Shown in pieces: positions 2,249 to 45,362 of a stretch of DNA of 45,362 nt. The position numbers and the translations under genes were made by a program. Positions within the stretch are counted from its first letter, which is position 1. Each line of letters opens with the position of its first letter. The notes beneath the pieces were generated by a model. That model ran no database searches. It was not told the origin of the DNA and worked only from the letters and a program-made list of their open reading frames with translations. The stretch comes from Nemertoderma westbladi (taxonomy: Eukaryota > Animalia > Xenacoelomorpha): positions 1 to 45,362 of the forward strand of contig JAUCBJ010000079.1 of the NCBI GenBank assembly GCA_032718475.1, read 5' to 3'.

Positions 2249-4603
2249 TGTAAAAGCTTTTGCGGATATAATCAGTCCCCTTGCCCGCAAAGTACCGTGT
2301 GGGTGTTTTAACGGACATAAAAGTTGTTTTTCTATATGTGTGCTTTGGCGGACATGGCAAGACACAAAACCCGCAATGCGTCAAATCCTCTAGCACAGTG
2401 TAGCCTTGATGATTAAGATTACGACATCTAACAGCTGGTTGCTGGCATGGAAACGGCCGTTGGACACATGGTTCTTTGTTCAGCTTAACAGCCAATCAGA
2501 GCGATTTTTACCTTAGACGTGGAGATATTCTACAGATGGTACTAGGCGTGTTCAGTCTTATAGTTTTCTTGTTACTGTTGTGTTGTTGCTTCTAGGCCAA
2601 GAACACCGGCTCTGGAGTCAATTGTTTTCAGACTTTAGAAGAAACATTAGTAGGCTTAGATTATAGAACGTATAACTGTTATCAGTCCAGTTCAATCAGT
2701 GTATCAGTGCTGCATTATCAGTGTTACACATATCATATCTTAACCTCAATCTGAAGATAAAAGTATCTATACTGTCAATAATTTATAATAGTCGGTGTAG
2801 TGTGTGTGGGGGTGTGTGTGTGTGTAGGTGTGTGTGTATGTGTGTGTGTATAAGCTTTGTCAAAATAAGATATAGAACTTAATGAAGAAAAATCATCTTA
2901 AATTGATACAAACAATAACATTGATGACTGTTTTCCAGCTTCCTCGCATTTAACCTGGTCAAGGGACGTAGCTTGGGGCACCAGGGGGGGGGGGGGTATA
3001 ATTAATATAATAAATATGACTGGGATACTCTTAAAACTGATAATATGCAGCAGTAAAGAGTATGAGAATTTCAGTAAAGGAAAGTGAGATTGTTGGTTAG
3101 ATGAAATTGTGGCAGATGTATGGAAAGTAGTAGCGTTGAACATGAACAGAACATACCATTATTGGCAGATTGCAACTGGATGCTGAAAGTTTGTTGGTGT
3201 ACGTACAAACTACCAATGAATGAATGGTTGCTGCCAAAATATATACAAATTGATTATTCTTAATTAAGAAGTGGACCATATAGATAAACAAATGCATATT
3301 CTATTCTAAAATTCAATATAATTTTGATTTAAGCGGGTGAGGCTAATTTCTAGCACGAATATACCATATAACATACAATCTCTTGTTACGTGATTATCCC
3401 TATATGCACTTTGCCACCCCATCCTATTTGCTGTAGTGATACGAACTCGCCACACTACATGGCTCGACCTATGCCAGCAGATTCCCAGGGACTGCCGTAC
3501 TGTAGGGATGACTTACGATGAGTCATGGATACACCCTGACACAAACTCGGGATACTTACCTACCGAGTAGACGGGACAGCAGTAGTTAGCTAGTCAGGAT
3601 ACTACAACGCAATTATCACCAACCAATAAGGGGATTACTACCTAGTAAAGTCAAGGTAGCAATAGGGCCTCGTGGGTCGCGTCAATCAATGGGAAGATCA
3701 CGTGTTGCGCAATCTATATCATTCTCATACAGTAAATGCATTATATATATTGCTTATGAATAGATTGTACTGGGGTTAATCACTATAGGTGAGCCTCTAA
3801 TATCGTATCAGTGTCTTGCTAAGAGAGAACTAACTAATCGATCAGTTGAACATCGATTAGTCACAACGTTACTGCTGCTACTTAATGAGAATAGTAGTCA
3901 GGCCGTCTTAATGCTATTTACTGTTGTCATTATTTGTATCAGTTGGTTGAATATTATTACTTGGAGAACATCGATAAATAACCCAAATTTCCCAATTTTC
4001 TTGATACACTACAGGTTAGAGAGACAGGTTACATATAGCGATTGCGACTTATATTATCGTGGTTTGTAGTGAATTTAATGCTATTTGATAGGCACTACAT
4101 GAGTCAATTGCTGTTCTCTTTATGTATGATAAAATTCATTGACGGTCGGCAGATTAGTGTGCAGTATTGTGCGGTACCGGTAGTGTGCATGATTGTGGCT
4201 GATAACTAAGCATTTCCTAAAGAATGCGCCTCATACGTGAATCATAAGCCTTACCGTCTTACCGTTGTGTTTAGTATAAGTCATATCTCTGTTTACCTAG
4301 ATAGAGCGCCACGTCCTAAAGGAACTGTTAATATTTCCCGAAAGTGAATAATATTAGTCAGAAATTATTTATTAACGATCAATCTAATAATACAGTAAGC
4401 TTACACTGCAATAAAATCTAAGCCCTCCGAATCCAGTCTCCCGGGTATATCCAGCGGGTGAATGGACGCGCACTAGGCTGGCTTCGGCTAATGTTGTGTT
4501 TATTGGTATTAAATACTTGTCATATGTTAAAGTCTATTTATAAACCAAAAGAAATATAAATTTTGGCAGGTTAAACTGCTAAAGGTCTTCAAAAGCGAGT
4601 ACA
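2249..4603 (+). repeat. 3' LTR of element A (TGTAAAAG...GCGAGTACA), ~1.1 kb longer than the homologous LTRs of B
   Basis: Both ends align by eye with the reverse complement of the B LTRs (e.g. TCTCCCGGGTATATCCA, GGTTAAACTGC.AAAGGTCT). CCAAT box at ~2492, AATAAA at ~4410. Segment ~2740-3910 is absent from the B LTRs. Confidence 0.8.
2795..2850. repeat. Imperfect (GT)n microsatellite
   Basis: Directly visible. Confidence 0.9.
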
Positions 4604-4818
4604 ATTATTAAGATATATCAACAATACAATATAATATAATATAAATATCAATATCAATAAACCATCGCCATTACTATGTATATAACAATAATTGATGCAA
4701 CTACAATATTAGAGTACTGTATATTTAATTAACATATGACACAACTACAGTATGTGACGCTCGCTGCAACAAAAGGTGCTATTTCCAATTATAGTATAGA
4801 CTCATTTTCAATGTAATT

Positions 4819-10316: not shown

Positions 10317-10930
10317 TCATGCTATTACGCTCAAATTTAAGTGCTACCAAATGTTCTCAAAATTTCACCCCCTAGGTACAGAGCCCAGCAAAGGGTTGCC
10401 TAGTTGGCTACGTTTTGTTATTGGATTTATTATCCATTTAGATTTTATTTTCTAACACACCCCTATCAGCGGACAGACAGACGTAAAAGACAAACAAGAC
10501 AGAAGGAACCAGTTCCATGAGATACCAAAAAAGAATCATAAAAAGGCACAAATATAAGTCTCAATTATAGAAATTAACTCGAGAAAATACTCTAAGTACG
10601 TACAGTACAACTAATATGGTGTCAAAAAAATATAATAATTCCAATTCCTACAGCAACATAATATAAGGAAAGAACACAATCATGTTAATATCTTCAACAT
10701 AACTCAGTTTACTCTTGTCGTAACAAATAATATAAGCAAAAATATTTTTTTGTCAACAGGTTCCATCATATCAAAAAATACAGATATGCATCTAATCTCG
10801 ATATAGTTTATAAACAAAAAATAACTTTCAATTTAAATTAAGATTTAAATTCCCGCCACCATTTCACTTTATGATTTAAAATATAAAGAAAATTGCTGTG
10901 TATAAATTTAATGTAAAATGTCTTTTAAGC

Positions 10931-11907
10931 GTCCCAACCAGAAGGACTTTGTATTTCAACCTCCCAACCAGAAGAACTTTGTCTTTCAACCGTCCCAACC
11001 AGAATAACTTTGTCTTTCAACCGTCCCAACCAGAAGAACTTTGTATTTCAACCTCCCAACCAGAAGAACTTTGTCTTTCAACCGTCCCAACCAGAATAAC
11101 TTTGTCTTTCAACCGTCCCAACCAGAAGAACTTTGTATTTCAACCGTCCCAACCAGAAGAACTTTGTCTTTCAACCGTCCCAACCAGAATAACTTTGTCT
11201 TTCAACCGTCCCAACCAGAAGAACTTTGTATTTCAACCGTCCCAACCAGAAGAACTTTGTCTTTCAACCGTCCCAACCAGAATAACTTTGTCTTTCAACC
11301 GTCCCAACCAGAATAACTTTGTCTTTCAACCGTCCCAACCAGAAGAACTTTGTATTTCAACCGTCCCAACCAGAAGAACTTTGTCTTTCAACCGTCCCAA
11401 CCAGAAGAACTTTGTCTTTCAACCGTCCCAACCAGAATAACTTTGTATTTCAACCTCCCAACCAGAAGAACTTTGTCTTTCAACCGTCCCAACCAGAATA
11501 ACTTTGTCTTTCAACCGTCCCAACCAGAAGAACTTTGTATTTCAACCGTCCCAACCAGAAGAACTTTGTCTTTCAACCGTCCCAACCAGAATAACTTTGT
11601 CTTTCAACCGTCCCAACCAGAAGAACTTTGTATTTCAACCTCCCAACCAGAAGAACTTTGTCTTTCAACCGTCCCAACCAGAATAACTTTGTCTTTCAAC
11701 CGTCCCAACCAGAATAACTTTGTCTTTCAACCGTCCCAACCAGAAGAACTTTGTATTTCAACCGTCCCAACCAGAAGAACTTTGTCTTTCAACCGTCCCA
11801 ACCAGAAGAACTTTGTCTTTCAACCGTCCCAACCAGAATAACTTTGTATTTCAACCTCCCAACCAGAAGAACTTTGTCTTTCAACCGTCCTAACTGGAAG
11901 AACTTTA
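10931..11907. repeat. Tandem satellite of ~31-32 copies of a 30-31-bp unit (CCGTCCCAACCAGAA[G/T]AACTTTGT[C/A]TTTCAA)
   Basis: Directly visible, with head-to-tail units and no spacers. Confidence 0.97.
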
Positions 11908-12946
11908 TGTCTTTGTGTGCTGTATGTCAGTCTATAAATCATTGCAGTTCTTTTACAGAGTTTACCACGTAATAGTACTTTGAATAATAAACATAATCTT
12001 CGGTTGTGCTATCTTCTCTTAGCACAACCAATCACCACCAACCATTGTAGTAAATATTATATTCAAACACACAGTACTACTGTACCGTACAGTAGGGTTG
12101 TATATTACCAGTACTTACAGTACATTATATTGTAATAAGGGTTTAAATTTGTAGTACATTTTAATTTTTTTATTACCAAAATTATTATGCTCACAATTAA
12201 TCATAACATAATAATTCACTAATAAGTATAATATTAAGCCAAAATATAGGCAAATAATATATAAATACATAATAATATATACAAAAATATATAATAACCA
12301 AGTATTATATAAAAATATGTGACTATTTATTCAAATCTACTAAATATTCAAATTCTACATATTGTTATTGTTGGAGTAGGGCCTGTATTTATTCACCTAG
12401 AATCTTATAAGTCTATCATTTATGAATAATTTAACTTTTAATCCGAATAATTGAGCTTTTTTTTACTAAAGTTCCAGAAGGAATATTAAATGTTTCTTCT
12501 AAACAGATAACTAGTAAATCAACGTTTTAGCAATTTTATTCATATCTGTACCGTGAGAGCCTTTTTTATGAAAAGGGCCCCGTACAATTGTAAATTATAG
12601 TGCTGCTCTAAGGCTTTTCAAAAATCAGACTAGCTCTTAAGTTTTGGGTAATGACTTGAATTTGAGAAAACTGCTTGCAGATTTGAAATCTACATTAAAT
12701 TCGGCACATGATAGAATAAAAAAAGTTTTTTGTCAATTTCCAATATAGGGGGGGTGCTACCCCCTCTCCCCTTATGTTGTTCGAATATGAAATACATAAC
12801 GAAGCCTTATAATTTTAGAATGCGCGGATTCCAATGATGGCTGCCCCGGTTGGGCGGCAGCAGGTGAATGTGGATACAATGCGGTCTGGATGCTCCCCAA
12901 CTGCCAACTCTCCTGTAATCAGTGCAACCCAGGTTGGTTTCGTGTG

Positions 12947-13095: not shown

Positions 13096-13493
13096 CTCCG
13101 TGTGTATCGTAGCAGCTTTATTTACTTTTATCCAAAGTCCTGGCACGTGACTAAAGTCTATATATTCGTGATATTTTCTCCCGAATCTACTTCCATCATT
13201 AAAACAACCTATACTCTATTGTAAAGTAAAGAAGCAGCATAGCATTATGAGAGCGCGTGCCTCTTTATGTAAAGGTCCGAAATGGGCGCATTTGGGGTGA
13301 CAACCCAATAATAAAGTCAACGTTAGATTGAGCTTTTTGTTGATGACGCACTAATGGACCAATCGAGGCATTATTGATTGTTTGGTGTTGTTTCTTTTTA
13401 CTATTTATATCGACAAGTCATTAAATTATTATTAATAATAATACTTAGAAAACAATCTGATAATCAAATGAATTTATTGTTATTATTTACTAG

Positions 13494-13531
13494 TCTCTGA
13501 TCACATTGCCGCCAACGAGAAAATGCACAGT
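13494..13531 (+). pseudogene. 5' fragment of a B-type (bulb-type, GNA-like) lectin exon interrupted by element B
   Basis: T-rich tract plus TAG acceptor at 13491-13493. Reads SDHIAANEKMHS and joins in frame to 28634 once the element and one TSD copy are removed. Confidence 0.8.
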
Positions 13532-14763
13532 TGTTCGCGCTTTCAGACCTTTGGCAGTTTAACCCGCCAAATTAGGATGTCTTCTAGATAATAAATCACC
13601 TTTAGTCTATGACAAGTATTTAATTCACTACACTAGTCGAAACCAATCTGTGCGCGATCATTCACCCGTTGGATATACCCGGGAGATTGATTTCGACGGC
13701 TTAATTTTATTGCTATGTAAGCCTAATGTATTATTCGACTGACAGTATTATATAATCTCTGACAATATTATTCACCTTCGGGGAATATTAACAGTTCCTT
13801 TAGGACGTGGCGCTTTTTCTATACAAACAGAGTTATGACTTAAACTACTCACAACGATATGGCTTAGTTATAATTCACATATATGGCGCATTCTTTAGGA
13901 AATGCTTCGTTATCAGTCTCACTCATACACAATGCTGCACAATACTGCACACTGATCTGCCGATCTTCACTGATTTTAGTCACGTATAAAAGGAACACGG
14001 ACCGAATCATGTAGGGTCTATCAAATAACATTAGATTCACTTCAAACCACTCAACATAGGTCGCAATCATTTATCTGTAACCTTTCTCTCTTACCTTCGG
14101 TATATCAAGAATATTGGGTTTTCGGGGTTATTTGTCGTTATTCCAAATATAATAATTCATCCACCATATTATGAAGAACCGACAGTAAATAGCAGTATAA
14201 CAATATAAAAGTATGCACAGTGTTACACAGTATGCAGTGTATGCAGTACTGCAGTATGCAGACATCAGACATCAAACATCAGACATCAGACATCAGAGTG
14301 CAATATGCAGATAACGGATATATGTCCTTATAATTAAGCCTACTAGTGTAGGACTAAAAACTGAAAACACGGAGGTGCCAAAAGCCGGTTCTTAGGCTCT
14401 GGGCAAAACATAACACTGAACTACTGAGTTTCTGTATACACCTCCAACACAGAGACAACAAACGCTCTGATTGGTCAACCTGAACAACGAGAGAACAAAG
14501 AAACAAAGAAACGTCGACGTGGCAATATCAGCTGCTAGCCGTCGTCATGGTAGCGACACTGTTTTCAAGAGTATCGAGCTTTTACGTCACGGAATTACGG
14601 ATTATGTCCTCTAAAGTACAAATACAGTACAAATACATAAGAAATGACTTTTATGTCCTCTAAAACACCAGTACAGCAAGGACACGGCCTTTTTATGCCT
14701 GGCAAACCAACTACAGAGTACTTTAAGGGAAAATAACCGGCTAATTACGCAAAAGCTTTTACA
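13532..14763 (-). repeat. 3' LTR of element B (1232 bp)
   Basis: Direct repeat of 27390-28628. By eye it differs by two substitutions and one 7-bp GCAGTAT unit. Confidence 0.97.
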
Positions 14764-14841
14764 CCGCTCCCAGAAAATGGGATTTAAGTCTATAAAATAT
14801 AACAAATCACAGTTTCTAAAATATAAAGATACTCTAAACAG

Positions 14842-17781: not shown

Positions 17782-20700
17782 TTACGTTATGGAGTCCCTA
17801 GATGTTTGAAGGATTAGGGAGGTGGTCGTGGGAAGAGAATCTTGCCTTCCACAGTTTCCGGAGAGTCCTCCATTCCCTTCCGATAAACACAAACGACCGA
17901 CTGGGTGATTGAGTCGCTGCATCCTGAATACAATTCCAGGTTTCCTCTTCGTCCTGGAATAGTGACGATAGAAACATCGCTCAAAGTATATGACGGCGTC
18001 ACAAAGCCGATTCCAGGAGCTATAGTGGTCCGTCGCTCTCTGCAGGAGAGGTGAGAGTCCCTGCGAGACGTCTGATGTTCCAGAGCTCCAATCGCTCTCT
18101 CTGATCTTCATGAAGGATCCACTCGCGGTGGGGAGGCCCAGATCCACGGCGTCGTCCCTGGCAACATGTAATACCGACAGATCTATCCCGGGTTCAAATA
18201 ACTCCGATCCACCCGTCCGGGTTTCAGGTTCGACTTTCTCCGCTCCCTTGGCTGGTCTAATCTCAGTCGGAGTAAGATGGGGAGGCCATTCATTCTCCTT
18301 ACTCAGGAAGTCGGGTTCACCTAACCGGTCTGTAGTATCTGTCAGTTCTTGAGGAGTTGCTCCTCTGGAAGCGATGTCCGTTGGATTAAACTTCTTGGGG
18401 CAATATCTCCATTGATCTACATTGGAGCTAAGATTGTCATTATCTGAGGAGTGTGGTGTTCCCTCAGTTGGGTCGTCTCCCTCACTAGTATCATCTTCCC
18501 ATTCACTCACCTGGCAGACGCGATCTTGAAGCAGTCTTTCCCTGAGCGTTCTACGGGAAGGTCCAGTAAGGTACCAACCTACTCTAGTTCTTACCGCATA
18601 GGTCTGTAGTGGCTGCGGTTGAGCAGGCCGTTTCTCTAATGTCTCCAGCGCCTCATGCGCGTTTTGGCCGATGAGTATTTGCACTCCAGGATAATCAGTC
18701 TGGAATCGAGGTATGTTAAGATGTTGGATGCTCTCATCCTCGTCCCAATTATAAAGGTCTGCTTGAGTAGTAGCGAAGTTCTTTATAGCCACCATTTTCA
18801 CTGACCTGATGCTATGTTCTCCTAGTTCGTCCTGGGGGGTGGACAACTCACCTATATAATAGTCGGCAGCTACAGTAGAATTCCAAACCTGCATGATCCC
18901 TGACATGTTTAGCTTGGTTCGGAACTTGGGTTGTCCAGCAAAGATGACTTCGGCTAGTTCTTTATCGATGAATGTTCCTGTGCTACCGGAGTCCAGGAGG
19001 GCGTTCACTATATAGCTCTTCTGAGGTCCGTGGACCCGTAACTGGACTACAGGAAATTCTCGGATTCCTATATTGGAAGTTGGCGCTTTCCAAGATGGTT
19101 GTTGATCGGAAGTAGTTAAGGTAAGGTCGCTGTCTGTGTCTTTCTCATACACAAGTGCTCGATACACTGCGGTGGTGTTTATTAGGTAACAGGATTCGTT
19201 TTGGTCGGAGAACTCGTCCGTATAGAATCCTTCCATCTCAGATTGATCAGTGTCGTTCACATCACTGAATTGGACATGTAGTTCGGACTCACTTACCTGA
19301 CTCGGGCTGTTTCGTTCGAATTCCGTGTGCAACAAGATATGATGTTTTGCGCCGCACTTTGCACACCTTGCGTCGGAGTTACAGGTTCGCCGTTGGTGTC
19401 CTCGTCTGAGGCAATTATAACACAACCGCTTATCCCACATGACTTCACGTCTATCCTTTAGTGATTTCCTCAGGAATTTATCACACGCATTTAAACGGTG
19501 GGGCCCGTCGCACAGCACACATTTCGGCTTGATGTTACTTACTTTAACCTGTGCTATGTGGTGCACACTTGTTCTTTCCTCGGGCTTTCTCACCTGAATT
19601 CTTTTAGGAGACGTAGGAAGGGTTTTTTGTACCGGTTCCCTTCTGTCATTGGGTCGAGACTCGGATTTACTTACCTGATCTTTAGGCATTTTATTGACAT
19701 AATAAGATCTGTCAGTGTCTTTCCCGCTGTCCTCTCCTTGAGAAGTTTGGCTTTCACCGTCGTCGGTATAACATACTGGTGTTACCCTTCTCCTAGAAAC
19801 GGGTTTCTCACTTACCTTGTTTTCCAATGTCTTCTCTCTGGACTGCCTTAGGAGCTGTAATTTCACTTCTCCATCTAAGAATGACATGAGATCAGCCATG
19901 GTAGGGTCTCGTCGTTGTTGTTCCATCATATATAACACTTTCTTATCCCAGCGTGTACCTACTCCACCCTTCGGTAAAGCAGAAGCCACTGCTCTAATAA
20001 CCATAGCACTCTGATACTCATGAGACTTACCTAGCCAATCTAATTGTCTGCAGATCTCCTGAATTTCATCGGAAAACTCTATAATCCCGCTACTAATAAA
20101 CTTTCGGGGCGCTACCAACTTTGCATACAAATACCCAGCTATGTTATTCCTATTACCATACCTGATGTTTAGTGTATCCCAAACTTGTCTTAATCCGTCT
20201 GGATGTCCAATAAACCTTAACGCCATTAACTTGGGAGATCCTTCCAAGCACTCGATGAGGTATCTAAGTTTTTCTCCATTAGATAGTACGGAGTTCTGTA
20301 TGTTATCTTTGTAATATTCATTAAAAGGTAACCATTTCATCTCATCTCCATTGAACTTAACGATCTCTCCCACCTTTACCGCTTGCCGGGCTTCGGTTCT
20401 AGCCATTTGACGCGTAAAACTTTCTTGGGCCATCGTGCTATTTAATATCGAGTTATCGGTGTATAAATTTCTCGGATTATGATCAGTTCTATAGGGAATA
20501 TCATTATCAACAGGTCTATAATTACCCTTAATAGGGTTCACTATAGGAGTTTCTACTTCGCTAGCAGTATAAATGCGTGTAGGCTCCACACCTTGCGCAT
20601 GAAATACTTCAGACCTAACGGGTTGACACATTGTTACAGGGGGTGGTGTTATACCCCTTTGTATGTTCACTAATTTATCGCATTCTAACGCGATACTTTG

Positions 20701-21210
20701 CTGCACCTTTTGCAACTCTAACCTACTTTCCCTTACTGTTCCCTTGAGCTGCTGAACAGTCTCTTCCATTTCCCGGACCTGCTGAGAGGAGCACAAACAG
20801 TGTTCCCTCAGCTGCTCGAGCAGGAGACCCATCTCCCGTCGTCCCTCAGCTACCCACTCAACCGCCGAAGCGGGAGTCGCCAACGTTGTAGCGGGCGAGC
20901 GAGAGACGACGGGCGATAAATTCTTAATATCTCGCTCGGCGTCCAGGATGGGTTCGGACTCGGGAACAGTCCTACTGGGCACAGGTAGTTTAGTACTGTA
21001 CAAAGGGAATTTATAGGCAGGTTCTGGGAGTACAGGTGTCTCTATCTTTCTTTCCGCTTCTACTGTTGCCATTGCCTCTGCCGCCTTTCTTTTCGCTTCT
21101 GCTGTTGCCATTGCCTCTGCCATCTTCCTTTCAAGACCCTGTCCAAGTCTAAGGCTGATTCTAATACCTTCCAAAAGACTATCTGACAGTGCCCGTTTTG
21201 TGTCAGACAT
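17782..21210 (-). CDS. gag-pro: BEL/Pao Gag-protease fused in frame to an RNase H C-terminal remnant (1142 aa)
   Basis: DUF1759-like KFNGDEMKWLPF...EKLRYL...RYGN, a triple Cys/His knuckle (CVLCDGPH, CYNCLRRGH, CAKCGAKHHILLH), protease ALLDSGS, then QWRYCPKKFNPTDIASRG and YSSWNRL with no RT. Confidence 0.93.
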   Translation of the reverse strand: MSDTKRALSDSLLEGIRISLRLGQGLERKMAEAMATAEAKRKAAEAMATVEAERKIETPVLPEPAYKFPLYSTKLPVPSRTVPESEPILDAERDIKNLSPVVSRSPATTLATPASAVEWVAEGRREMGLLLEQLREHCLCSSQQVREMEETVQQLKGTVRESRLELQKVQQSIALECDKLVNIQRGITPPPVTMCQPVRSEVFHAQGVEPTRIYTASEVETPIVNPIKGNYRPVDNDIPYRTDHNPRNLYTDNSILNSTMAQESFTRQMARTEARQAVKVGEIVKFNGDEMKWLPFNEYYKDNIQNSVLSNGEKLRYLIECLEGSPKLMALRFIGHPDGLRQVWDTLNIRYGNRNNIAGYLYAKLVAPRKFISSGIIEFSDEIQEICRQLDWLGKSHEYQSAMVIRAVASALPKGGVGTRWDKKVLYMMEQQRRDPTMADLMSFLDGEVKLQLLRQSREKTLENKVSEKPVSRRRVTPVCYTDDGESQTSQGEDSGKDTDRSYYVNKMPKDQVSKSESRPNDRREPVQKTLPTSPKRIQVRKPEERTSVHHIAQVKVSNIKPKCVLCDGPHRLNACDKFLRKSLKDRREVMWDKRLCYNCLRRGHQRRTCNSDARCAKCGAKHHILLHTEFERNSPSQVSESELHVQFSDVNDTDQSEMEGFYTDEFSDQNESCYLINTTAVYRALVYEKDTDSDLTLTTSDQQPSWKAPTSNIGIREFPVVQLRVHGPQKSYIVNALLDSGSTGTFIDKELAEVIFAGQPKFRTKLNMSGIMQVWNSTVAADYYIGELSTPQDELGEHSIRSVKMVAIKNFATTQADLYNWDEDESIQHLNIPRFQTDYPGVQILIGQNAHEALETLEKRPAQPQPLQTYAVRTRVGWYLTGPSRRTLRERLLQDRVCQVSEWEDDTSEGDDPTEGTPHSSDNDNLSSNVDQWRYCPKKFNPTDIASRGATPQELTDTTDRLGEPDFLSKENEWPPHLTPTEIRPAKGAEKVEPETRTGGSELFEPGIDLSVLHVARDDAVDLGLPTASGSFMKIRESDWSSGTSDVSQGLSPLLQRATDHYSSWNRLCDAVIYFERCFYRHYSRTKRKPGIVFRMQRLNHPVGRLCLSEGNGGLSGNCGRQDSLPTTTSLILQTSRDSIT

Positions 21211-21339
21211 TTTTGTTTGTACAGTTGAATGCCTACTGCTATATTACAGTCTAAGCAAGTCTAGTAATTCAGTATTAACTGCTAGCCTAGTAATTAATTA
21301 CCGATACTGCTACTCAGTGTAGCGTGATATATATATAAT

Positions 21340-21590: not shown

Positions 21591-23436
21591 TTATTTTAAA
21601 TAATTGAATTTCTGAACTTTAGGGTTACTTTGTTACTTTACTTACTTTATTACCGTTATTTGAACAGTAGTCCAACTGATATTGAGACCTAATGGTTATA
21701 TGGTAGGCCTACTATTTATAAATCGTTAGATTTGATTTATAATATATATATACCCGTTTTAATGGGCTTTGTCAATATTTGAAATAAATGTTATTATTTC
21801 TGGGGAGTAATCACTACACAAAGCGGTGCGCTTTCAGTGAAGTGTTACTTACAGGACACTAAAACAAATAATACTAATTTACCTAAGTTACTTAATACTA
21901 CTAATTACGTACAATTCGGGTGAGATTACAATCTCTAAATAAACACAAAAATTTACAAAAACACAAATACGAATTTTTAGGGTAATTTTACAAGAAGTCT
22001 ACAAACCAGCCTAACAAAGGGTTAGAAAACTGATTATTACAACGGACAGGGTACTACGGTATTTGAAATAATAAGTAGTAGTAAATACACTGCGTTGTCT
22101 AGATAGAAAAATACCACCGCCTGACGACCTATAGCCGTATCGCTATAGGTTCTACGTTATGTATCACGGAGTGTTCCTACCTAGAAGTTAATAGAGCTAA
22201 TCGAATGTGCCTATCAACCACTTTACAACACAAATATAATGCCTACACTAATTACTTCGGAAAGTACTGTACACTAAACCCTAAATTAGGTACGAGTACT
22301 TGTACAACAGATAATCAGTAGTTAAATATACTTGAACAGCTAAAGGAACCACGGCATCTGCTGGAGTGACCGATGCACAAAATCACCAGTCTTTACCTAC
22401 GCCGAGCAGCCCGTGTAGTACCGGGGTTAATTTAACTATAGCGGTATGTATAACAAACACAATTACTGTAGGAACAAACTTGGGGAATGAATGTTGCGGA
22501 TAATCGCATAAACTCTGAATAATAAATATTACGCTACGCGTACAAACTACTCAAACAAAATACAGACCGAACACTGACAGACTACTATCAAGCCTAAACA
22601 AACTACGGTATATGCAGACTCCGAAATGATTAGGGAGTATGCGCTCTAACCCAGTAGTGCGACTTATTCTTTAGTTGGGGGTTTACCTTACAGCGTTCGC
22701 TGCCCCTACTTCCTAACCGTACTTAATCAGACAAATGATCTACACACGCTGCAATCCGTTCCCAGGTAGCACAGGACGTCCACGAAAGAAATCGAACGTT
22801 CATATTTGGTACTTTTTTTATGCGAATCTGAACATCAATGAAATATTGTTCAAAATTGGTAAAAATTGCTGACGTTGTGAGTAATTTACCAAATTGTGAC
22901 GTTCACATTAGGTAATTTAACGTCCTAACTTTAAAGAAATTGAATATGTACCAAAACAAACGAATATTGAACGTTCAAATTGCGTCCAGTTATGCGTTCA
23001 TTTTCTTGTACCTAAATATGTACGTTGTTTGAACATTTATGAACGTTCAAACATAATTTACTTTAACTTGTTATGTCAACGGCATGTTCAAACTTGTTCG
23101 TGATACAATTATCTGACTATTTATTATTTTGCAATTATTTTTTATGTTGGTTAGCCTACTCCTTGTATGGTTGGTGTGGTTCCGCTTAGTTATACCTGGA
23201 CTAATGGTTCATTCTCAATACAAAACAATTTAATTAACTTTTTTTTTAAACACTTATTTTTTTTTTTTAATTTAAACAATTTAAAACAATTTTAAGTAAT
23301 CGAAAAATTATTCACACAACAAAACATTGATAACCAATACAATGCTGACGCATTTTTAAACATTTTAAACAACAAATAACATCAAAATTAGACAAAGGTG
23401 ATTCTACTGATTACTAAAGCTAATACACTAGTACTA

Positions 23437-25845
23437 CAGTCCCGCTCACCAACAGAGTGCCATCGGATCCGATCGGATCCAACACACTCCGACAGCTTCA
23501 AACAAGCACAATGCTAACCTACGGAGATTTAGTACTGTTTGATTCTGTTGGAGAAAATATTTCCAACAGGTTTAGTCTGTTGGAGCCCATCTGAATCTGT
23601 CTGAAATCCGTCTGAAAGTGTTTGAAATTTCTGTTGGATGTTGTTGGAAGCTATCTGAAGTTGTCTGAAGCTGTTTGAAATTGTCTGAAACTGTTGGAAG
23701 TTGTCTGAAGATGTTTGACGCCATCGGAATTTGTTGGAATTTGCCAATGCCCTACAAAAGCGTAGTTCATTAACAAAATGTCAATCACTTTAACTCTCAA
23801 TTTGAAGTGATTGTGAGGGTGTGCTATTGTCAATTATAAACCGAAACAAAGATTTGTTTCATTTAACAATTTTTATTTACATAATTATGTCGTTAATTAT
23901 ATCAATTAATTAACTAGAATGCATAAACGAATAATAAATTCCTATAATATAAATTCCGATAAATGAATATAATAACACCAACACGTTTTTAATTCCTTAA
24001 TTTAATTAGAAATGTAAATAATGCTATAAATATATTAGTTTCTTTGACGTAGGGCACTAAATACTGCACATAAACAGATATAAACACAAACAGATTAAGC
24101 AAACAGTAAATATAATTACAATGAGTGAAAAAAATATTTTTGGTTAATTTTATTAGTTGTGTTGAAAGAGCATCGAAATGAAAAGGTTTGCTCGTAATAC
24201 TTCTAGCCCAACTATTTTTTCGCGCACCTACCCTATTTGAGTAAATTACATTCACACACTCAAAAGTTATTGCAACTTTAGTCTCTGCAAGGCGAACTTC
24301 GAAACGGAACTCCATATCCAATATTGGTTTATAGTTAAGCGGTTCCCTAGTTACGAAATAAATATTCGAGAACAATAAATTATTTAACATTGAGTAAGGC
24401 AGCATTTAGGCAGAATTTAGGAACAAACAAGTACCTATTTAAGAATAAAATTACGTATACATGGGAAAACTTATTTAGAATATTATCACTACCCTTTAGT
24501 AATGATGGGTGGAAAGTCCCCCCTAGCCCTTCACAAGGGAGGGTGGACGTAGGGACGGGGCCCAACGCCAACATATCGTGATAGTTTGTCACATTGGAAG
24601 GGGAGGGGTTGATGAAACGTGGCTGTTAATGTTAAACGTGAATGAATTAATATCATAAAGTAGTATTGAGCATTACGCACAACCATAATAGATTAGATAG
24701 AGAATTGGGAATGTGAAGGCCCTTGTTTTCACGTGACTGCCATGCCATATTATGATGTAATGTATATCCGCCATGGGAGAAACGAAATTGCGACAACTAT
24801 GGAGAATCGGGAAGCCTGGAAGGATCTCATTTCCACTGTCCGAGTTCGCTCGACTTAGTAGTTAGTAGTATATCCGCCATTCACGTACTGTTGTTATGTA
24901 AAAGGTAGACCTAATCACACCAGATACTAATTAAAATAATGTCTTAATAACTAATTATATTCATTCATACAATAAGCAATGTAGCCAATTAAGGCTGTGA
25001 TTGACAAATTAACCGCACAATTAATTAATTGACAAAACAAAAATCAAACTAGTAGAGATCATATCCAAACCTGTATAAATATAAATAAACGCAACGATAT
25101 AACTAACACATGTACGTACACTATATTAACTGTAGAGGGGGATACTGTCCCTCCTGCGAAAAGCAAAATATATTTATCAGTATTTTAATTAATGTAACTT
25201 AAAGAAATTGAGCCTTATTCGAAGAAATTCTACATGGGCATTTTGGACCTATACCGCCACTCCTTGGCTCTTTGGAAGTGTATTTCCGTAAAGCTCTATT
25301 GTATGGCTCTAGACCAACCCAAAGCAACATTAGTATGTGAACACAGAATTCCATTCCCCATTCATTTCAATGGTAGCCAACTTGTCTTTCTTGTATTGGG
25401 GGTAGACCACTGGTTAGCTTTCTGCTATTGTGTTATTCAAAGATAGCGGCAGGAATAAAGAGAAATACCGACCTCACTAATGTGCTGTTCCTTCAGGTCA
25501 GCTTGAGTTACAGTGTGAATGTTCAAGGGCGCCGCCAGTGGCCAGTCCACTCTGTCGTTATTGTGGCTTTATGAATGGAGTTCCTTTAGTAGTTTCAAAA
25601 GCTTTCATTCTATCTGCGCGCAAGAAGATGGGAGTTGAGTTGGGGTTGCGGTTGAGTGTGGGTGGAGTGATTGACAGGTTGTTGGAAGTTGTCTGATTCT
25701 GTTTGAAACTGTCTGAATCTGTTTGAAACTGTCTGAATCTGTTTGAAGTTGTTGGACTGTTGGAGTTTGTCTGAAAGTGTTTGAAGCTGTTGGATCCGAT
25801 CGGTTCAGATCGGATCCGATGGCACTCTGTTGGTGAGCTGGACTG
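23437..25845. mobile_element. Non-autonomous Tc1/mariner-like element (TA|CAGTCC.GCTCACCAACAGAGTGCCATCGGATCCGATC ... |TA) nested in the EnSpm-like element
   Basis: ~38-bp inverted termini with one mismatch, TA on both sides, and internal 10-bp TGT[C/T]TGAA repeats near both ends. Confidence 0.8.
24775..24867 (+). mobile_element. ~93-bp 5'-truncated RTE-like LINE tail
   Basis: 13-bp TSD GTATATCCGCCAT (24762-24774 and 24868-24880). Encodes ...MENREAWKDLISTVRVRST* followed by a (TAG)n tail. Confidence 0.8.
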
Positions 25846-27377
25846 TATGTCACGAAAAATTGTAATAAAATTATTAGAATATATTAGGCTTATTGAACCA
25901 AGAAAATAACAAACAAAGAAAACCGCAAAAGTTTGTCTATTTTGATACCAACTGACCAAATACCATTACATTTTGTTGAGATAAATCGGATATATGGGCG
26001 TTGGAATGTTCAAACCTCTATCATGCATAGGGTAATTTTTTTAATCGCAAAACATTATTTTTTATTTTACAAATTTATCATATTATATAAACCTTTCTTA
26101 CTTTTCAATTGCTTTTTGTATGTATTATTGCCTTATTGCATAGATACAAAATTTCAAATATCAATTATAAGGTCATAAAATTAATTAATTTTTTTAAGAT
26201 TCATCAATATGAAAAATCTATTTTGGCTGGAAATAAGATAAAATACAGAAATCTAACTAATCCAATGCGAATTTGTGGATCATCACCATAATATATCATG
26301 GATACTCTTATATCACTATCGATTAAATAATTTCATATATACTCTGATGCTTCCCTCTCTAAATGTATAGGGTATTGTAGGTGTAGGGCCGTAGGATAGG
26401 GTGTAGGGATTGGATAAGGCAGGCTACCACCCCCCCCCCCCTCCCCTCTCTACACAGAACATGCACCAACAAACAGTGATTGGTTGGTCTCACGTTAAAT
26501 TTTTACGTTTATTCAACCTAATATGGACCTATAACACACCAGAAATGAACGTCTAGTGAACACGTCATTTGAACATAGATTGCCTGTAGTCTCTTTTACG
26601 TTCAATTGCCCGTTCATATTACGGTACTTCTGACGGCCAACTTTGAACTATTGAACGTTTAGCATCAATAGCATCTTATGGGAGAAATACAACGTCATAT
26701 GAACATAAATCCAGAACGTCTGGACGAATAATGAACGTAAATTTACCGTAAATTTACGTATTTGTGCTACCTGGGTTCAGACCTAATAACAGCCAGACAA
26801 CTATCCAGCCTACAAATTATCTAAATAAATATTATACGCTACCCGTACAGACTTACACAAACAAAGTACAGACTAAACGATGGCAGACTACTCTCAAGCC
26901 TAAATAAACTACAGGACATGCAGACTCCGAAATGATTAGGGAGTATGCGCTCTAACCCAGTAGTGCGACTTATTCTTTAGTTGGGGGTTTACCTTACAGC
27001 GTTCGCTGCCCCTACTTCCTAACCGTACTTAATCGGACAGGTGATCTACACACACTGCAATCCGTTCAGACTTAACAGCAATCAGACAACAGCTCAGCCT
27101 ACAAATCGTCTGCACAATCTGATCAGGTTTACACGCCTTCTGTTCAATACTGGCCTACAAACAAATAAAACTGACAGAAATAGGCCTAAGTAAAATCCCA
27201 ATAAAAACCAGGCGTCCCCGATTAATTATTAAGACCTACCGGCATATATAATCAAATCGAATAATACTGCTGTACCTGTACTGTTGTAGGTACCGGTCCG
27301 GATGATCAGGCAGTCAGGCCTACTGGTTACCGGTCGACCGGTACTTTCGACTTTATTGCTTACTGCAATAAAGAAGC

Positions 27378-27389
27378 TATATCCGTTAT
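27378..27389 (-). promoter_or_regulatory. Primer-binding-site position of element B: ATAACGGATATA, complementary to its own LTR (putative self-priming site)
   Basis: Abuts the 5' LTR end, lacks the TGG of a tRNA PBS, and forms a perfect 12-bp inverted repeat with 28176-28187. Confidence 0.65.
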
Positions 27390-28628
27390 TGTTCGCGCTT
27401 TCAGACCTTTGGCAGTTTAACCCGCCAAATTAGGATGTCTTCTAGATAATAAATCACCTTTAGTCTATGACAAGTATTTAATTCACTACACTAGTCGAAA
27501 CCAATCTGTGCGCGATCATTCACCCGTTGGATATACCCGGGAGATTGATTTCGACGGCTTAATTTTATTGCTATGTAAGCCTAATGTATTATTCGACTGA
27601 CAGTATTATATAATCTCTGACAATATTATTCACCTTCGGGGAATATTAACAGTTCCTTTAGGACGTGGCGCTTCTTCTATACAAACAGAGTTATGACTTA
27701 AACTACTCACAACGATATGGCTTAGTTATAATTCACATATATGGCGCATTCTTTAGGAAATGCTTCGTTATCAGTCTCACTCATACACAATGCTGCACAA
27801 TACTGCATACTGATCTGCCGATCTTCACTGATTTTAGTCACGTATAAAAGGAACACGGACCGAATCATGTAGGGTCTATCAAATAACATTAGATTCACTT
27901 CAAACCACTCAACATAGGTCGCAATCATTTATCTGTAACCTTTCTCTCTTACCTTCGGTATATCAAGAATATTGGGTTTTCGGGGTTATTTGTCGTTATT
28001 CCAAATATAATAATTCATCCACCATATTATGAAGAACCGACAGTAAATAGCAGTATAACAATATAAAAGTATGCACAGTGTTACACAGTATGCAGTGTAT
28101 GCAGTACTGCAGTATGCAGTATGCAGACATCAGACATCAAACATCAGACATCAGACATCAGAGTGCAATATGCAGATAACGGATATATGTCCTTATAATT
28201 AAGCCTACTAGTGTAGGACTAAAAACTGAAAACACGGAGGTGCCAAAAGCCGGTTCTTAGGCTCTGGGCAAAACATAACACTGAACTACTGAGTTTCTGT
28301 ATACACCTCCAACACAGAGACAACAAACGCTCTGATTGGTCAACCTGAACAACGAGAGAACAAAGAAACAAAGAAACGTCGACGTGGCAATATCAGCTGC
28401 TAGCCGTCGTCATGGTAGCGACACTGTTTTCAAGAGTATCGAGCTTTTACGTCACGGAATTACGGATTATGTCCTCTAAAGTACAAATACAGTACAAATA
28501 CATAAGAAATGACTTTTATGTCCTCTAAAACACCAGTACAGCAAGGACACGGCCTTTTTATGCCTGGCAAACCAACTACAGAGTACTTTAAGGGAAAATA
28601 ACCGGCTAATTACGCAAAAGCTTTTACA
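27390..28628 (-). repeat. 5' LTR of element B (1239 bp)
   Basis: Direct repeat of 13532-14763. Confidence 0.97.
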
Positions 28629-28964
28629 ACAGTGGTGATTATCGCGTATCTCCCAACGGTGAATTCAAGTTGACATACCAAGACGACGGCAATCTCGTTC
28701 TCAGATGCGGAAGTACAGCCGTCTGGTCAACTAACACCGGAAACACGGATGCTTTCGTTCAGATGAAGGGAGACGACTGCAACTTCGTAATTTGGCCAAA
28801 TGGTATTGCGATATTTCCTGTTTGGGCAACTAATGCTTTTCGTCTTTTTGTCTCATGCCAGAATCCGAGAGCGGTTGTGCAAGTCGATGGCAATTTCGTT
28901 GTCTATAATGAAGACACAGACGTAGTTTGGGCAAGCAACACTGTCGATCGTGCATCCAATCTAT
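28629..28964 (+). pseudogene. 3' part of the B-type lectin exon
   Basis: SGDYRVSPNGEFKLTYQDDGNLVL...VWSTNT...MKGDDCNFVIW...VWATN...VQVDGNFVVY...VWASNT shows three QxDxNxVxY-like subdomains. Donor GTAAGT at 28965; the reconstructed exon is phase 1-1. Confidence 0.88.
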
Positions 28965-29157
28965 GTAAGTTAGTGTATTTCTACCGTACACATTATTACA
29001 GGAACACAACGTAACTAGGTAGTCTCTAGTTTTACTTATACATTATGTAAATACAATAACAACAACAAACAATGTATATAGGTATTGTAGGGCGAGCCAC
29101 GAAGTAATGAGAACCTTAGCGTAGGGGTACCATTAATCAACTTGTAGATCAGTATAG

Positions 29158-32472: not shown

Positions 32473-33065
32473 TGTAGGATTTGTCAAGGTGATTTACTGT
32501 GCAATATTTATTATTTTTAGAACATTACCTATGTTTGCTACAAAAATTTCATTAAGTTAGATAATGCAGTATATAGCCGCTAAATCATGAAAGCGCATGA
32601 AATAATCTGTTTATTGCTGTGTTTTTATTGGTTGGAATTGGAACCTACTCATATGATTGGATGCTTTCCCGTGATAGGAGTGGGGCAATTTCTATAAAAG
32701 CCGATGTTCTTAGTCGTTTAATTCAGTGTGCTCTTGTTGGGTTTGCGAGACAGTAATCCCAGCAAAAGTTGTTTTACCGTTTTTTGGTCCGCCCAAATCA
32801 CGGTAGATAGTTTTAATCTGTAAGCTTAAATAAAGTACAGTAGTAAGCTATCTACCGTACCGTGTCAGTATATGTGTATACTACAATCACCGTCTGCAGA
32901 TAATTAAGGAGCAATATATATAGTTGCAATAAATACGGAGCATTCGGCGTTTTGTTAATTATTGTAGGGGGATCTTTAAACGCGTCAGAAGCATTTGTCG
33001 GATAACATAAGGACAAGCCCAATAAAAGAACACACTCCATATGTCGGTGTTCGCTATACCGCACA
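32473..33065 (+). repeat. Putative 5' LTR of element C
   Basis: TG start, TATAAAAG at 32693, Inr-like TCAGT at 32723, AATAAA at 33021 and a ...CCGCACA end. The 3' boundary is inferred because there is no second LTR. Confidence 0.6.
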
Positions 33066-33688
33066 GAAAGTAAAACAACTTTTTGGTTTTATTAAATTGG
33101 AAAACGAAGGTGTTTTTACTATTAGTTAAATTGTTGCACAATTTTACAAAAAACACATAAAATCGTATTTTTAACAAATATTTATTGTTGAATTTAATAT
33201 TAGTAATTTTAATATAAGTAACAGAAATTTATTGAAAATGGCCAGGTTGAACTTAGAATTAACTGAGCCATATTAGTCATACAGTTTAGTTATACAAATA
33301 TAAGCAATATATGGTACAGTAGAACAGGTGACAGGGTTGAACAAAGCTTTCAGCTCGGTTACAATTTATTGAACAATACGGCCAATATAGCGAGCTAGTG
33401 GATATCTTCCCACATTCAGCTAATATTAATTGAGATAAAACAAGCATTAATTTATTGTCATACGCATTACAAATTAATTTATTGTTACATAATATACAGT
33501 AGGATAAAAGTACATTAAATAAATAGTTGCACAATATTTCTCTATGTACATTGCACTGTACAGTGGCCTTGTTGAGCAAAGTCTTAGCTAAGCCATGTCA
33601 TTATCCATTGCGAGCCACAGTATATAGGCTACCAGTAACAGAGTATTTCACTACAGGCTAGCTCTGCAAAATAAATTAAATATAAAAA

Positions 33689-39979: not shown

Positions 39980-40163
39980 GTCACAAATCATACATCACAT
40001 AAACTCAATATTATGTAGTGTAGTGTGTAATGAAAGCATATACTGTACTATATGTTAGGCGAATAATATTTATACTGTACAACTTATATACTGTAGGTCT
40101 ATATTTTGTCATTCACTCATATCTTAACTTAAGAATAAGAATAGTGATCCTTTGCCAAAGGTA

Positions 40164-41102
40164 ATGGATCTCAACAACAACTGTGGACCACCTTGTGGCA
40201 ATGAGGATAATTACTATCTTCGGAGTCCAAACTGGAAAGTATTTTTGGGATACCCTTCCAGTCCGGGAACACCAGGTATTCGAGACGAAAATGATGATCC
40301 TGTGGTGATTGACCTTTTACCCACTGAAGAGGAGAGAGAGATTTTGGGGTCTCTACCACTTCCGCTACCACCACCGATACAGCGAGAGGAACAAATAAGA
40401 AAAAATCCCGGAGATCTCTATTGGCGATTAAACCAGGAGCCATACAAAGCGCGATACATTGCAACATATGATAATTGGTATCAAACACCTTTTGCGAGGC
40501 CTCCAGAAATACCTATTTCGATTGGATATATTGTATTGTCAAAGCAAGCTACTCCTGGTTGCTTTTCATGCGGACTGGCCACTTGTCCGATTGCCCAGAC
40601 ACGGTGGGTGGAGAAGCTGGGTCCTCGCAAATGTCAGCTACGCAAAGCATTCGCATATTGCGAATACTGTGGTATAGCAGGATCGCACCTTATACATACC
40701 TGCCCTCAACTTCTTAACCGCTGTGTTAAATGCGGGTGTCGTGGACATGGACTGCATGAATGCACCTACCAGGAGAGTGAAATGAAGAAGTATCTTATGA
40801 AGTTCGAACAAGCGGCTTGCATTAGCTCTGTGCTAATAAACCGTAATAAAAGATACGATTGCGATCCATTGGCGATAGCTTTAGGTTTTTTTCCTATTCC
40901 ATTTCGGATGAAGTGCGACGGAACACTCAAGAACCGGGAATTTACCTATGATGATTTGGTGGGGGCTTCACTCCATAAGTCAGTATCTTATGTGCTGAAC
41001 TTCCTAAATCGTTTTGGGAGGGAACCACAGGGGCATCACATGCTCTTAGAAATACTGCAGTCTCGCAATTGCAAGGGCTGCAAACTCTGCCAGCCTACTT
41101 AA
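40164..41102 (+). CDS. Intact accessory ORF of element C: Pro-rich N-terminus and Cys/His zinc-knuckle module, homologous to the module in ORF 1-2171
   Basis: WYQTP...CFSC...C...YCEYCGIAGSHLIHTCPQLLNRCVKCGCRGHGLHEC...KYLMKFEQAA...GFFP. First ATG at 40164, ~185 bp after the pol stop. Confidence 0.8.
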   Translation: MDLNNNCGPPCGNEDNYYLRSPNWKVFLGYPSSPGTPGIRDENDDPVVIDLLPTEEEREILGSLPLPLPPPIQREEQIRKNPGDLYWRLNQEPYKARYIATYDNWYQTPFARPPEIPISIGYIVLSKQATPGCFSCGLATCPIAQTRWVEKLGPRKCQLRKAFAYCEYCGIAGSHLIHTCPQLLNRCVKCGCRGHGLHECTYQESEMKKYLMKFEQAACISSVLINRNKRYDCDPLAIALGFFPIPFRMKCDGTLKNREFTYDDLVGASLHKSVSYVLNFLNRFGREPQGHHMLLEILQSRNCKGCKLCQPT

Positions 41103-44176: not shown

Positions 44177-45362
44177 TCTCCTCCCTAGATATTTGACTCT
44201 ATAAAGTATATAAATCGAGTTATAATAAACATCTGTAAATAATCAAATATCTAAACAATAATTGAGGGAAGGAGAAAAAAAAAATGAAAAACTAAAATTT
44301 TCCATTCCGTCTTCCATTGCTTAATATCATTTTCGTAGAAATCCAACTAATTTCATTTTCATGGTTGTACATTAAGCCTGTTTGGTTGTCTCCTGTTACG
44401 CTGACTTCTTCTCAACGGTAATGGAGTACCGGTAGTTTCATCTGGTGGTGCAGTGTGAGTTTCTGATTTAACAACCTGCTTATTATCTTCTTTGGACAAG
44501 CACGGTCTAAGGAAATGGCGGTTTCGCCATATCACACCACCAGATAGTAGTTTTATGGTATAATCACAGTGTTCCCCCACAAATATAACCTGTCCAGATT
44601 TGTCCCATTTCTTTGTAGATGGGTTTTGAATCATAACAGTAGACCCTGATTTGATCGGATTTAATTGTCTGGTAGAACGATTATAATAGTTTTCTGATTT
44701 ATAAAACTCAGCTGTTCGTTTATCATCTACATCGGATGCTAATTTCTGCCATGCAGGAGCAAACGATCGTGGGTGAGCTGGAACTTTGGATCTCAAATTA
44801 CATCCAAAAACATATTGCGCAGGTGAGCGACCCTCAACACGAGGTGTGTTTCTCAACTCTAATAAACCATTTAAAAATCCTTCAGATTTAATATTTCCAT
44901 TATGTTTCATGACAAGGTGTTTGAGAACTTTCACAGTAGCCTCAGCATGGCCATTAGATTTCGGATAGTAGGGAGATGACGGAACCCATTGAACTCCCCA
45001 CCTTGAGAGGAAGTCCTGAAACTCTTCAGACCTGAATTGAGGTCCTCCATCTGAGCGCAATACTACTGGAACCCCGGTTTGTACAAAAAAATGTTGTAAT
45101 GCAGCAGAAACTTGATCTGAGTTAGGATCTTGGGCCCATTTGGCCAGAAAGGGAAATCCTGATAATCGATCTGCATATGCTAGATATTTATTTCCTGCAA
45201 AACTAAATAGATCTGCAGATACAACTTCGAAGACTCATGTTGGTAATGGATCTGCTGCTAAGGGTTCTGTAGGGTTACTGGGTCGGTGTAACAAACATTC
45301 TTCACAATCTTCTACAGCCTGTGTTAAATCATTTGACATTCCAGGCCAAAATAATATGTCTC
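44177..45362 (-). mobile_element. 3' portion of a Ty3/Gypsy (Mag-like) retrotransposon: integrase with an in-frame stop at 45235-45237, and PPT. Its 3' LTR starts at 44176 and runs left (far end not resolved).
   Basis: FWPGM..C..C, ADLF, RSDGGPQF, SSPYYPKSNGHAE and RNRHFL motifs. Minus-strand PPT AGGGAGGAGA (44177-44186) is followed by TGTGTGA. Confidence 0.9.

Follow-up and report, generated by a model that had tools for sequence, protein, structure and literature searches.

A BEL/Pao retrotransposon with a primer-binding site complementary to its own LTR, and relatives in which the complement is predicted to be assembled by splicing

The window, the whole 45,362-nt stretch of DNA that was analysed, contains on its minus strand a retrotransposon of 15,097 nt (28628-13532; element A), the main features of which are as follows:

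28629..28633 and 13527-13531, minus strand: target site duplication (TSD) ACTGT, flanking both LTRs
27390..28628, minus strand: 5' LTR, 1239 nt, TGT...ACA
17782..21243, minus strand: ORF for Gag (DUF1759, triple Cys-His box) and protease, extending into a short remnant resembling the end of an RNase H
14764..14771, minus strand: purine-rich, polypurine-tract-like (PPT) GGGAGCGG, directly before the 3' LTR
13532..14763, minus strand: 3' LTR, 1232 nt, TGT...ACA

The single long ORF of element A matches DUF1759 (E 1.6e-11) and carries an ALLDSGS...LIG protease motif, Pao-type Gag and LLDxG...LIG motifs being the marks of the group taken from the available part of PMC554778. Together with the triple Cys-His box, the TG...CA LTR pair, the TSD and the PPT, these features uphold the assignment to BEL/Pao made in an earlier note on this DNA. 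The 18-nt tRNA primer-binding site (PBS) given in the ICTV description is missing, which indicates that this description is incomplete rather than that element A lies outside BEL/Pao. The DUF1759 Gag and Pao-type protease are at odds with an ancestry among the Ty3/gypsy chromoviruses; judged from its sequence, element A would work like Tf1 but is not a member of the Tf1 group. In a Gag-protease tree it falls among the BEL loci on a long branch, without a supported sister, and its group is presumably Sinbad/Suzu-like. The two LTRs differ by two substitutions and one 7-nt indel, and neither a reverse transcriptase (RT) nor an integrase is encoded in this copy, so that it is both young and non-autonomous. 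Element A is inserted into a bulb-type lectin-like frame (28634-29014, plus strand, and about 13480-13531; PF01453, E 4e-6, below the cut-off), which appears continuous across the TSD. Its leader contains a 4.3-kb insertion (22521-27067) bounded by a 240-nt direct repeat (91%), inside which lies a stretch with terminal inverted repeats (23435-25847).

The region in which reverse transcription would be primed, and its counterparts in the LTRs, are located as follows:

27378..27389, minus strand: PBS, lacking TGG and directly adjoining the LTR end; most family contigs have other letters at 27389 and 27385
28176..28187, minus strand: 12-nt complement of the PBS and candidate self-primer, LTR positions 442-453; the exon-1 half is predicted to consist of its first 7 nt
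14311..14322, minus strand: identical 12-mer in the 3' LTR, by sequence match

TGG is absent from the 60 nt that follow the 5' LTR, in keeping with the non-TGG site that the earlier note had placed there. When reverse-complemented, the 12 nt adjoining the LTR (27389-27378) match LTR positions 442-453 exactly and at offset 0, so that both copies of the complement and the flush priming geometry claimed in that note were recovered. A 12-nt complement to the LTR is reached at one of 12,595 internal start positions of element A, namely the PBS, at a composition-based expectation of 2.3e-4 per site and with p=0.002 over 2000 resampled LTRs with offsets of 0-4 allowed. The arrangement is that of a Tf1-type site, with a PBS of about 11 nt that is complementary to the LTR and flush with its end. 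ARAGORN located no tRNA in the 45,362-nt window, and the one Rfam match in 27200-28700 (E 0.38) lies far under its cut-off.

Several further elements occur in the window, two of which bear on the PBS of element A:

2249..4604, plus strand: related, diverged 3' LTR (element E), with 10 of the 12 primer letters kept at 2671-2682
32764..33083, plus strand: second BEL element (B), with a 14-nt contiguous complement (32764-32777 / 33070-33083) at its presumed PBS

The LTR end of element B was picked by hand. Extra 3' ORFs in B (40128-41102, plus strand) and E (1321-1473, plus strand) share a Cys/His-rich motif (E 1e-4), that of B being without a Pfam match, and element A retains just remnants of the last ORF of E (73% over 44 aa). 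A third BEL element (C) lies on the minus strand (43635-41467 and 32524-30770), its gag seemingly split by element B; its leader is occupied by an element with an integrase (44359-45234), which makes its PBS unreadable. The window also contains a 31-nt satellite array (10870-12033) and, at 6745-9282, a non-LTR element that has both endonuclease and RT.

The likely ends of the transcript are marked by two features:

28280..28339, minus strand: candidate promoter with CCAAT (28339-28335), TATA-like TATAC near 28303, and TCAGT at 28292-28288 and 28284-28280
27564..27569, minus strand: AATAAA, candidate poly(A) signal, kept in E

These promoter motifs, which we take to be CCAAT, TATA-like and TCAGT elements, place a candidate start 95-103 nt upstream of the 12-mer, and the CCAAT is kept in the LTR of E. 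From the TCAGT at 28284-28280 to the start of the 12-mer downstream is a distance of 95 nt, in agreement with the caveat of the earlier note that it lies some 100 nt past the likely Inr. The primer would probably lie about 70-100 nt inside R, unlike the 5'-end primer of Tf1. Since a TATA/Inr pair is detected in four of the 14 relatives with a splice-built complement (see below), 71-99 nt before the donor, a primer about 100 nt downstream of the start appears to be a pattern of the lineage and not an anomaly. The primer itself (28187-28180, minus strand) includes ATATCC, presumably resembling a minor-class AT-AC donor; this candidate was set aside, the motif not being kept in E or in two contig variants.

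Relatives were sought with a degenerate RNase H motif, which returned 22 loci in genome bins and at least 119 in metagenomes (4 of 64 parts); the 141 motif matches included 35 with a flanking direct repeat, 28 of them with TG...CA boundaries. Automatic boundaries were dropped for five loci (L011, L013, L103, L051 and L107), the first three of which were re-set by hand. The 22 contigs from genome bins (L011-L032) are assigned to bacterial and archaeal MAGs, and Peptidase_A17 was found in all ten such genomes searched (G001-G010), with 13 matches in G008; on sequence grounds, the BEL/Pao sequences in these bins are contaminating animal DNA. The U5 20-mer has no match in the metagenomes. Viral contigs contain no Pol and no RNase H motif match, one weak 27-residue match to Gag, and the PBS pattern at nine loci, which is taken as chance. 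A Gag-protease search confined to proteins of 2000-5000 aa gave three distant matches.

The first set comprised 15 non-TGG loci whose LTR and leader could be read, several of them bounded by hand. In 11 of these (L011, L013, L014, L015, L018, L020, L025, L027, L032, L058 and L103) the LTR yields a perfect PBS complement of 11-14 nt, but only once a consensus GT-AG intron is taken out. Boundary-free p-values for this set are 0.005-0.065, and seven loci compared with PBS shuffles reach the floor of 0.002. A second set of 16 stretches was collected after the idea had been recorded, seven of them without a usable LTR pair. Of its four non-TGG elements, three have an 11-nt match (L190, L197 and L192), while the fourth (L196) matches at 10 of 11, with one mismatch present in both LTRs; the complement in its five TGG elements is 0-6 nt. 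Thus, 14 of the 19 non-TGG relatives outside the window have a split complement, formed by 13 different junction sequences and 11 nt long in ten of the 14; the close pairs among them are L020/L032 and L018/L197. The other non-TGG misses are L076 (9 nt, no donor), L022 (8-9 nt), L012 (9-10 nt) and L017 (gap in the LTR). Nine further loci (L091, L038, L070, L097, L067, L065, L071, L100 and L107) and element C of the window, with an incomplete LTR or leader or a tRNA-type PBS, gave no match and were not counted. The controls were 21 loci in which TGG occurs no more than 10 nt from the LTR; a single assembly contributed 20 of them, and their LTRs are short and contain few splice sites. In these controls the best self-complement is at most 7 nt and no consensus-junction match occurs. 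The split complement in 14 of 19 relatives, against none in the 21 tRNA-PBS controls, suggests that RNA self-priming is likely a trait of the lineage.

When 11 relatives were compared with each other, each junction fitted its own PBS only (11-14 nt on the diagonal; off-diagonal maximum 8, mean 4.4), and in all 11 the spliced duplex is more stable than either unspliced side. The PBS-LTR pairing that the earlier note had proposed looking for in related BEL elements is thus present in 14 of 19 non-TGG loci, at 11-14 nt and with the own PBS only. A compensatory block of 3 nt distinguishes L020 from L032. The predicted introns measure 75-530 nt in 11 relatives and 1022 nt in L192, and L058 (523-828) has two alternative acceptors, each followed by TTTAC, either of which yields the same primer. 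The PBS of several relatives starts with GTAAA. BEL elements with extra ORFs after pol were also observed: L184-L187, with a TGG-type PBS and up to 13.5 kb long, and L190, with a splice-built complement. Trees built with FastTree (81 loci and element B) and IQ-TREE (51 Gag-protease rows) split arthropod-type TGG elements from a branch that unites the spliced elements with the three window elements (97/94), the latter grouping weakly (77/71). L038, assigned a tRNA-Met-type PBS by a motif from the available text of PMC5445492, falls on the side of the spliced elements. The comparative evidence that splicing would build the primer is strong for the lineage and moderate for the family of element A.

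Within the LTR of element A, two features are relevant to such a junction:

27703..28180, minus strand: predicted 478-nt intron with non-consensus donor GTTATC and acceptor TAG followed by TTTAA, holding a hypervariable tandem-repeat tract
27947..27952, minus strand: consensus donor GTAAGA, preceded by AG, inside the predicted intron; homologue CAG/GTTAGA at 4015 in E

The 12-mer created by the predicted 28181-to-27702 junction is the exact complement of the commonest PBS of the family, while the PBS of element A itself matches the unspliced RNA and not the spliced junction. The spliced and unspliced 12-mers differ at two positions, which correspond exactly to the variable PBS positions 27385 and 27389. 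Duplex energies are -13.3 for the element A PBS with unspliced RNA and -11.6 for the variant PBS with spliced RNA, against -7.3 for either swap. The sole TTTAA in the LTR of element A comes after TAG, a coincidence with a chance of 0.05 for YAG and 0.12 for any AG. The acceptor TAG is kept in E and in loose contig ends of X1 and X3, where the homologous acceptor (TGTGTTTAG, ending at 4274 in E) is stronger than that of element A. Both the hypervariable tract and about 1.1 kb of extra sequence in E lie within the predicted intron, the 3' 330 nt of which are 78% identical to E, the LTR end being 81-85% identical. The GTAAGA donor at 27947..27952 is a possible alternative or recursive splice site. 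A strict consensus-splice test returned no junction in the LTR of element A, the acceptor of which fails the pyrimidine filter; its GTTATC donor is without the +5/+6 GT that all 14 relative donors have (GTAAGT, GTGAGT, GTATGT, GTCAGT), and the 12-nt junction match in this family holds for the variant PBS and the non-consensus donor only.

Variation in the family was surveyed in the contigs of four (X1, X3, X4 and X5) of the six sequencing runs that contain the stretch, in which it is large and diverse, the shares below being of summed depth and not of copy number. PBS variants at 27385 make up 69%, 64%, 74% and 0% and those at 27389 66%, 53%, 74% and 0% of summed depth in X1, X3, X4 and X5, respectively, among the variants listed, and in X4 the two occur at one contig depth. 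This variant PBS, at about two thirds of summed depth, pairs just 7 contiguous bases with the LTR 12-mer. Plain covariation, a prediction noted beforehand, would entail matching LTR changes at 28176 and 28180, which are not listed at 2% or more; the test is weak because the site abuts the hypervariable tract, where such contigs are clipped, and one variant subfamily is visible merely as a clipped end, among the ends listed. The absence of covarying letters counts, weakly, against a simple contiguous self-primer. GTTATC, the 3' half of the 12-mer, is kept in every visible version of the LTR (element A, E and contig pieces of X1, X3 and X5), while the flanks of the 12-mer and its positions 5 and 7 vary. 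This conservation may have other causes, as GTTATC pairs with a conserved GATAAC and, we presume, resembles a GATA site. No contig of the four runs, none of which is on record as RNA though X4 may be, is joined across the predicted intron.

Folding predictions for the LTR RNA centre on two sets of strands:

27719..27772, minus strand: strands that, by prediction, pair with and hide the 12-mer as long as the RNA is unspliced (27742-27719/28205-28183 and 27772-27766/28181-28175)
28197..28216, minus strand: left arms of helices H1 (28216-28207/27495-27486) and H2 (28205-28197/27564-27556)

In RNA folded from the presumed start, the 12-mer is buried by 27772-27719 at -18 kcal/mol, with p=0.003 in element A and p=0.40 in E; as one A/E cross-pairing also equals native stability, no covariation is claimed for this helix. 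Once either candidate intron is removed, the left arm is predicted to pair instead with another partner, next to AATAAA; in the predicted fold without 27952-27703 this arm moves to H2 and the first four primer letters are unpaired. H1 and H2 join the sequence just upstream of the primer to the LTR end and show compensatory changes in E (native -13.0/-9.1 and -9.3/-12.9, crossed -3.7/-7.8 and -7.4/-7.4), and contig variants at 27558 and in the matching left arm agree. Exon-1/U5 helices of this kind reach p<0.05 in just three of 11 relatives and are therefore not a general feature. Their topology, we assume, resembles the additional tRNA-U5 contacts of retroviruses. The primer:PBS helix has a probability of 0.00-0.04 in nested folds from 28250 or further upstream, spliced or not, and of 0.97-0.98 in folds starting at 28200 or 28187; as it crosses H1 and H2, nested folding gives it only from starts at 28200 or later.

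Self-priming in some form is considered very probable for the family of element A. The reading preferred here, at a probability of roughly one half, is that the family uses an internal R-RNA primer built by splicing and that the PBS of the element A copy was copied from unspliced primer. Its basis in the DNA is the 12-nt complementarity of PBS and LTR, flush with the LTR end, and the complement that, in 14 of 19 tRNA-less relatives, arises only when a consensus GT-AG intron is removed from the LTR. Transcription would start upstream of the primer, at a distance of about 95 nt, and excision of 28180-27703 would fuse the first seven primer letters to TTTAA, producing the complement of the commonest PBS and taking away the strands predicted to bury the primer. 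In Tf1, RNase H cleavage frees the 3'-OH of the primer. Likewise, RNase H of a helper element would cut 3' of the duplex to release a 3'-OH, and the primer would then be copied into the daughter PBS, so that priming by unspliced RNA would yield the PBS of element A. In Tf1 about half of the cDNA keeps the full PBS, copied from the primer, at its 3' end, according to the available part of PMC11042837. Possible sources of the primer are the R at the 5' end, that at the 3' end or, in trans, a short transcript of the LTR, and inheritance of the intron would entail that at least one R per genome remains unspliced. Speaking against the preferred reading are the GTTATC donor and the poor acceptor of element A, the conservation of the 3' part of its predicted intron in E, the contiguous complement of element B and the near absence of the primer:PBS helix from nested folds with an upstream start, as well as the long branch of element A, the position of L038 in the tree and the origin and short LTRs of the controls. 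The broader proposal, that a large and mostly marine branch of BEL/Pao elements makes its RT primer via the host spliceosome, with splicing licensing replication and the two PBS states of this family a fossil record of the priming isoform, is put forward tentatively, at somewhat less than even odds.

A less likely, though substantial, alternative is that the primer is a ready-made contiguous internal segment from which the intron has been lost, and that copies with the variant PBS have a matching 12-mer in their LTRs. The perfect 12-nt match in a very young copy and the non-consensus GTTATC donor agree with this, as does element B of the same window, which is contiguous over 14 nt and belongs to the weakly grouping window elements (77/71). 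Removal of 27952-27703 exposes the first four primer letters in the predicted fold, and splicing from the 27952 donor may thus still clear the burying strands of a contiguous primer. Such a primer, however, predicts covarying LTR letters that are not listed at 2% or more, sits poorly with GTTATC in all visible LTR versions, and would leave the exact TAG/TTTAA match to chance (0.05-0.12). That the site is a chance match or a product of local recombination, with no role in priming, is the least probable of the explanations weighed: roughly two thirds of the summed depth of contigs has a PBS whose contiguous pairing with the 12-mer is limited to 7 bases, and TATAA at 28197-28193 could put the 12-mer in U3, but this TATAA is not kept in E, the match has a p of about 0.002 at offset 0, and the PBS-LTR relation recurs across the lineage.

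Priming by a host RNA, such as a tRNA half or small RNA, with the LTR match serving RNA folding only, is improbable. Half-tRNA primers without TGG are known in Copia lineages (available part of PMC6317226) and GTAAA at the start of the PBS is common to several relatives, but PBS sequences vary widely, each tracking its own LTR junction as a fixed host RNA would not, and Rfam gave no notable match in 27200-28700 (best E 0.38). Slightly less probable again is a strict Tf1-type arrangement, in which the transcript starts at or just before 28187 and has the 12-mer as its 5' end. It would account for the primer:PBS helix in folds from 28200 or 28187 (0.97-0.98), and the PBS starts with ATAAC like that of Tf1 (PMC11042837, in the part available); against it, no TATA or Inr lies at a suitable distance, CCAAT and TCAGT occur 95-150 nt upstream and are kept in E, in relatives the primer is preceded by a first exon, and the majority PBS is left unexplained. 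Of the tRNA-independent self-priming advanced in the earlier note, the self-priming is thus supported by the relatives (14 of 19) and element B. The plain Tf1 picture is not, as the complement of the relatives is split by a consensus intron and lies 71-99 nt behind TATA/Inr in the four of 14 with such a pair, and the commonest PBS of the family mismatches the contiguous 12-mer.

Splice-built, self-primed reverse transcription, as suggested by these sequences, was not found described for BEL/Pao: no title or abstract was found that deals with self-priming in the superfamily or with a primer built there by splicing, subscription papers, supplements and Repbase lying outside the scope of the search. 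A survey of BEL/Pao (PMC3118150) makes no mention of primer, PBS, priming or tRNA, the available part of the Sinbad paper (PMC554778) none of primer binding, priming, tRNA or self, and the available parts of PMC8220671 and PMC3601003 contain nothing on BEL priming. Officially, BEL/Pao elements are tRNA-primed and their replication is poorly understood (PMC8742986). If the preferred reading is true, they would represent a third LTR superfamily with self-priming, through an internal and usually intron-split primer, and a new way of starting reverse transcription that ties transposition to host splicing; the PBS should then flip between two sequences according to the priming isoform. A self-primed PBS would account for the failure of PBS finders on such BEL elements.

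The Belpaoviridae of the ICTV, with an 18-nt PBS for tRNA-Arg or tRNA-Gly and tRNA-primed replication, share with element A the LTRs, PPT, triple Cys-His Gag, LLDSG...LIG protease and 5-bp TSD; element A differs in its length of 15.1 kb (4.2-10 kb in the family) and in being without a tRNA PBS, RT or integrase (PMC8742986). Fungal GalEa elements are likewise LTR elements without a tRNA PBS, in which a local hairpin and no LTR complement was found (PMC5445492, available part), whereas the complement of element A is long-range. Self-priming has been described for Tf1/sushi, Tcn1, Tj1 and plant TAR elements in the available parts of PMC6317226 and PMC4600332. In the TAR lineage (Houba, Osr-1) of the plant Ty1/copia elements it is similarly predicted from PBS-LTR complementarity; these are plant elements of the Copia superfamily, for which the available part of PMC6317226 describes no splice-built primer. 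The closest likeness is to Tf1, Tf2 and Tj1 and to Tf1/sushi elements including Tcn1, which have no tRNA site and a PBS of about 11 nt that adjoins the 5' LTR and is complementary to LTR RNA (available parts of PMC4600332 and PMC6317226), the PBS of Tf1 and that of element A both starting with ATAAC (PMC11042837, in part). In the Ty3/gypsy chromoviruses Tf1 and Tj1, however, the primer is a 5' segment of the mRNA that is contiguous in the DNA, while in element A its place is likely within R, and in most of the relatives an intron splits it.
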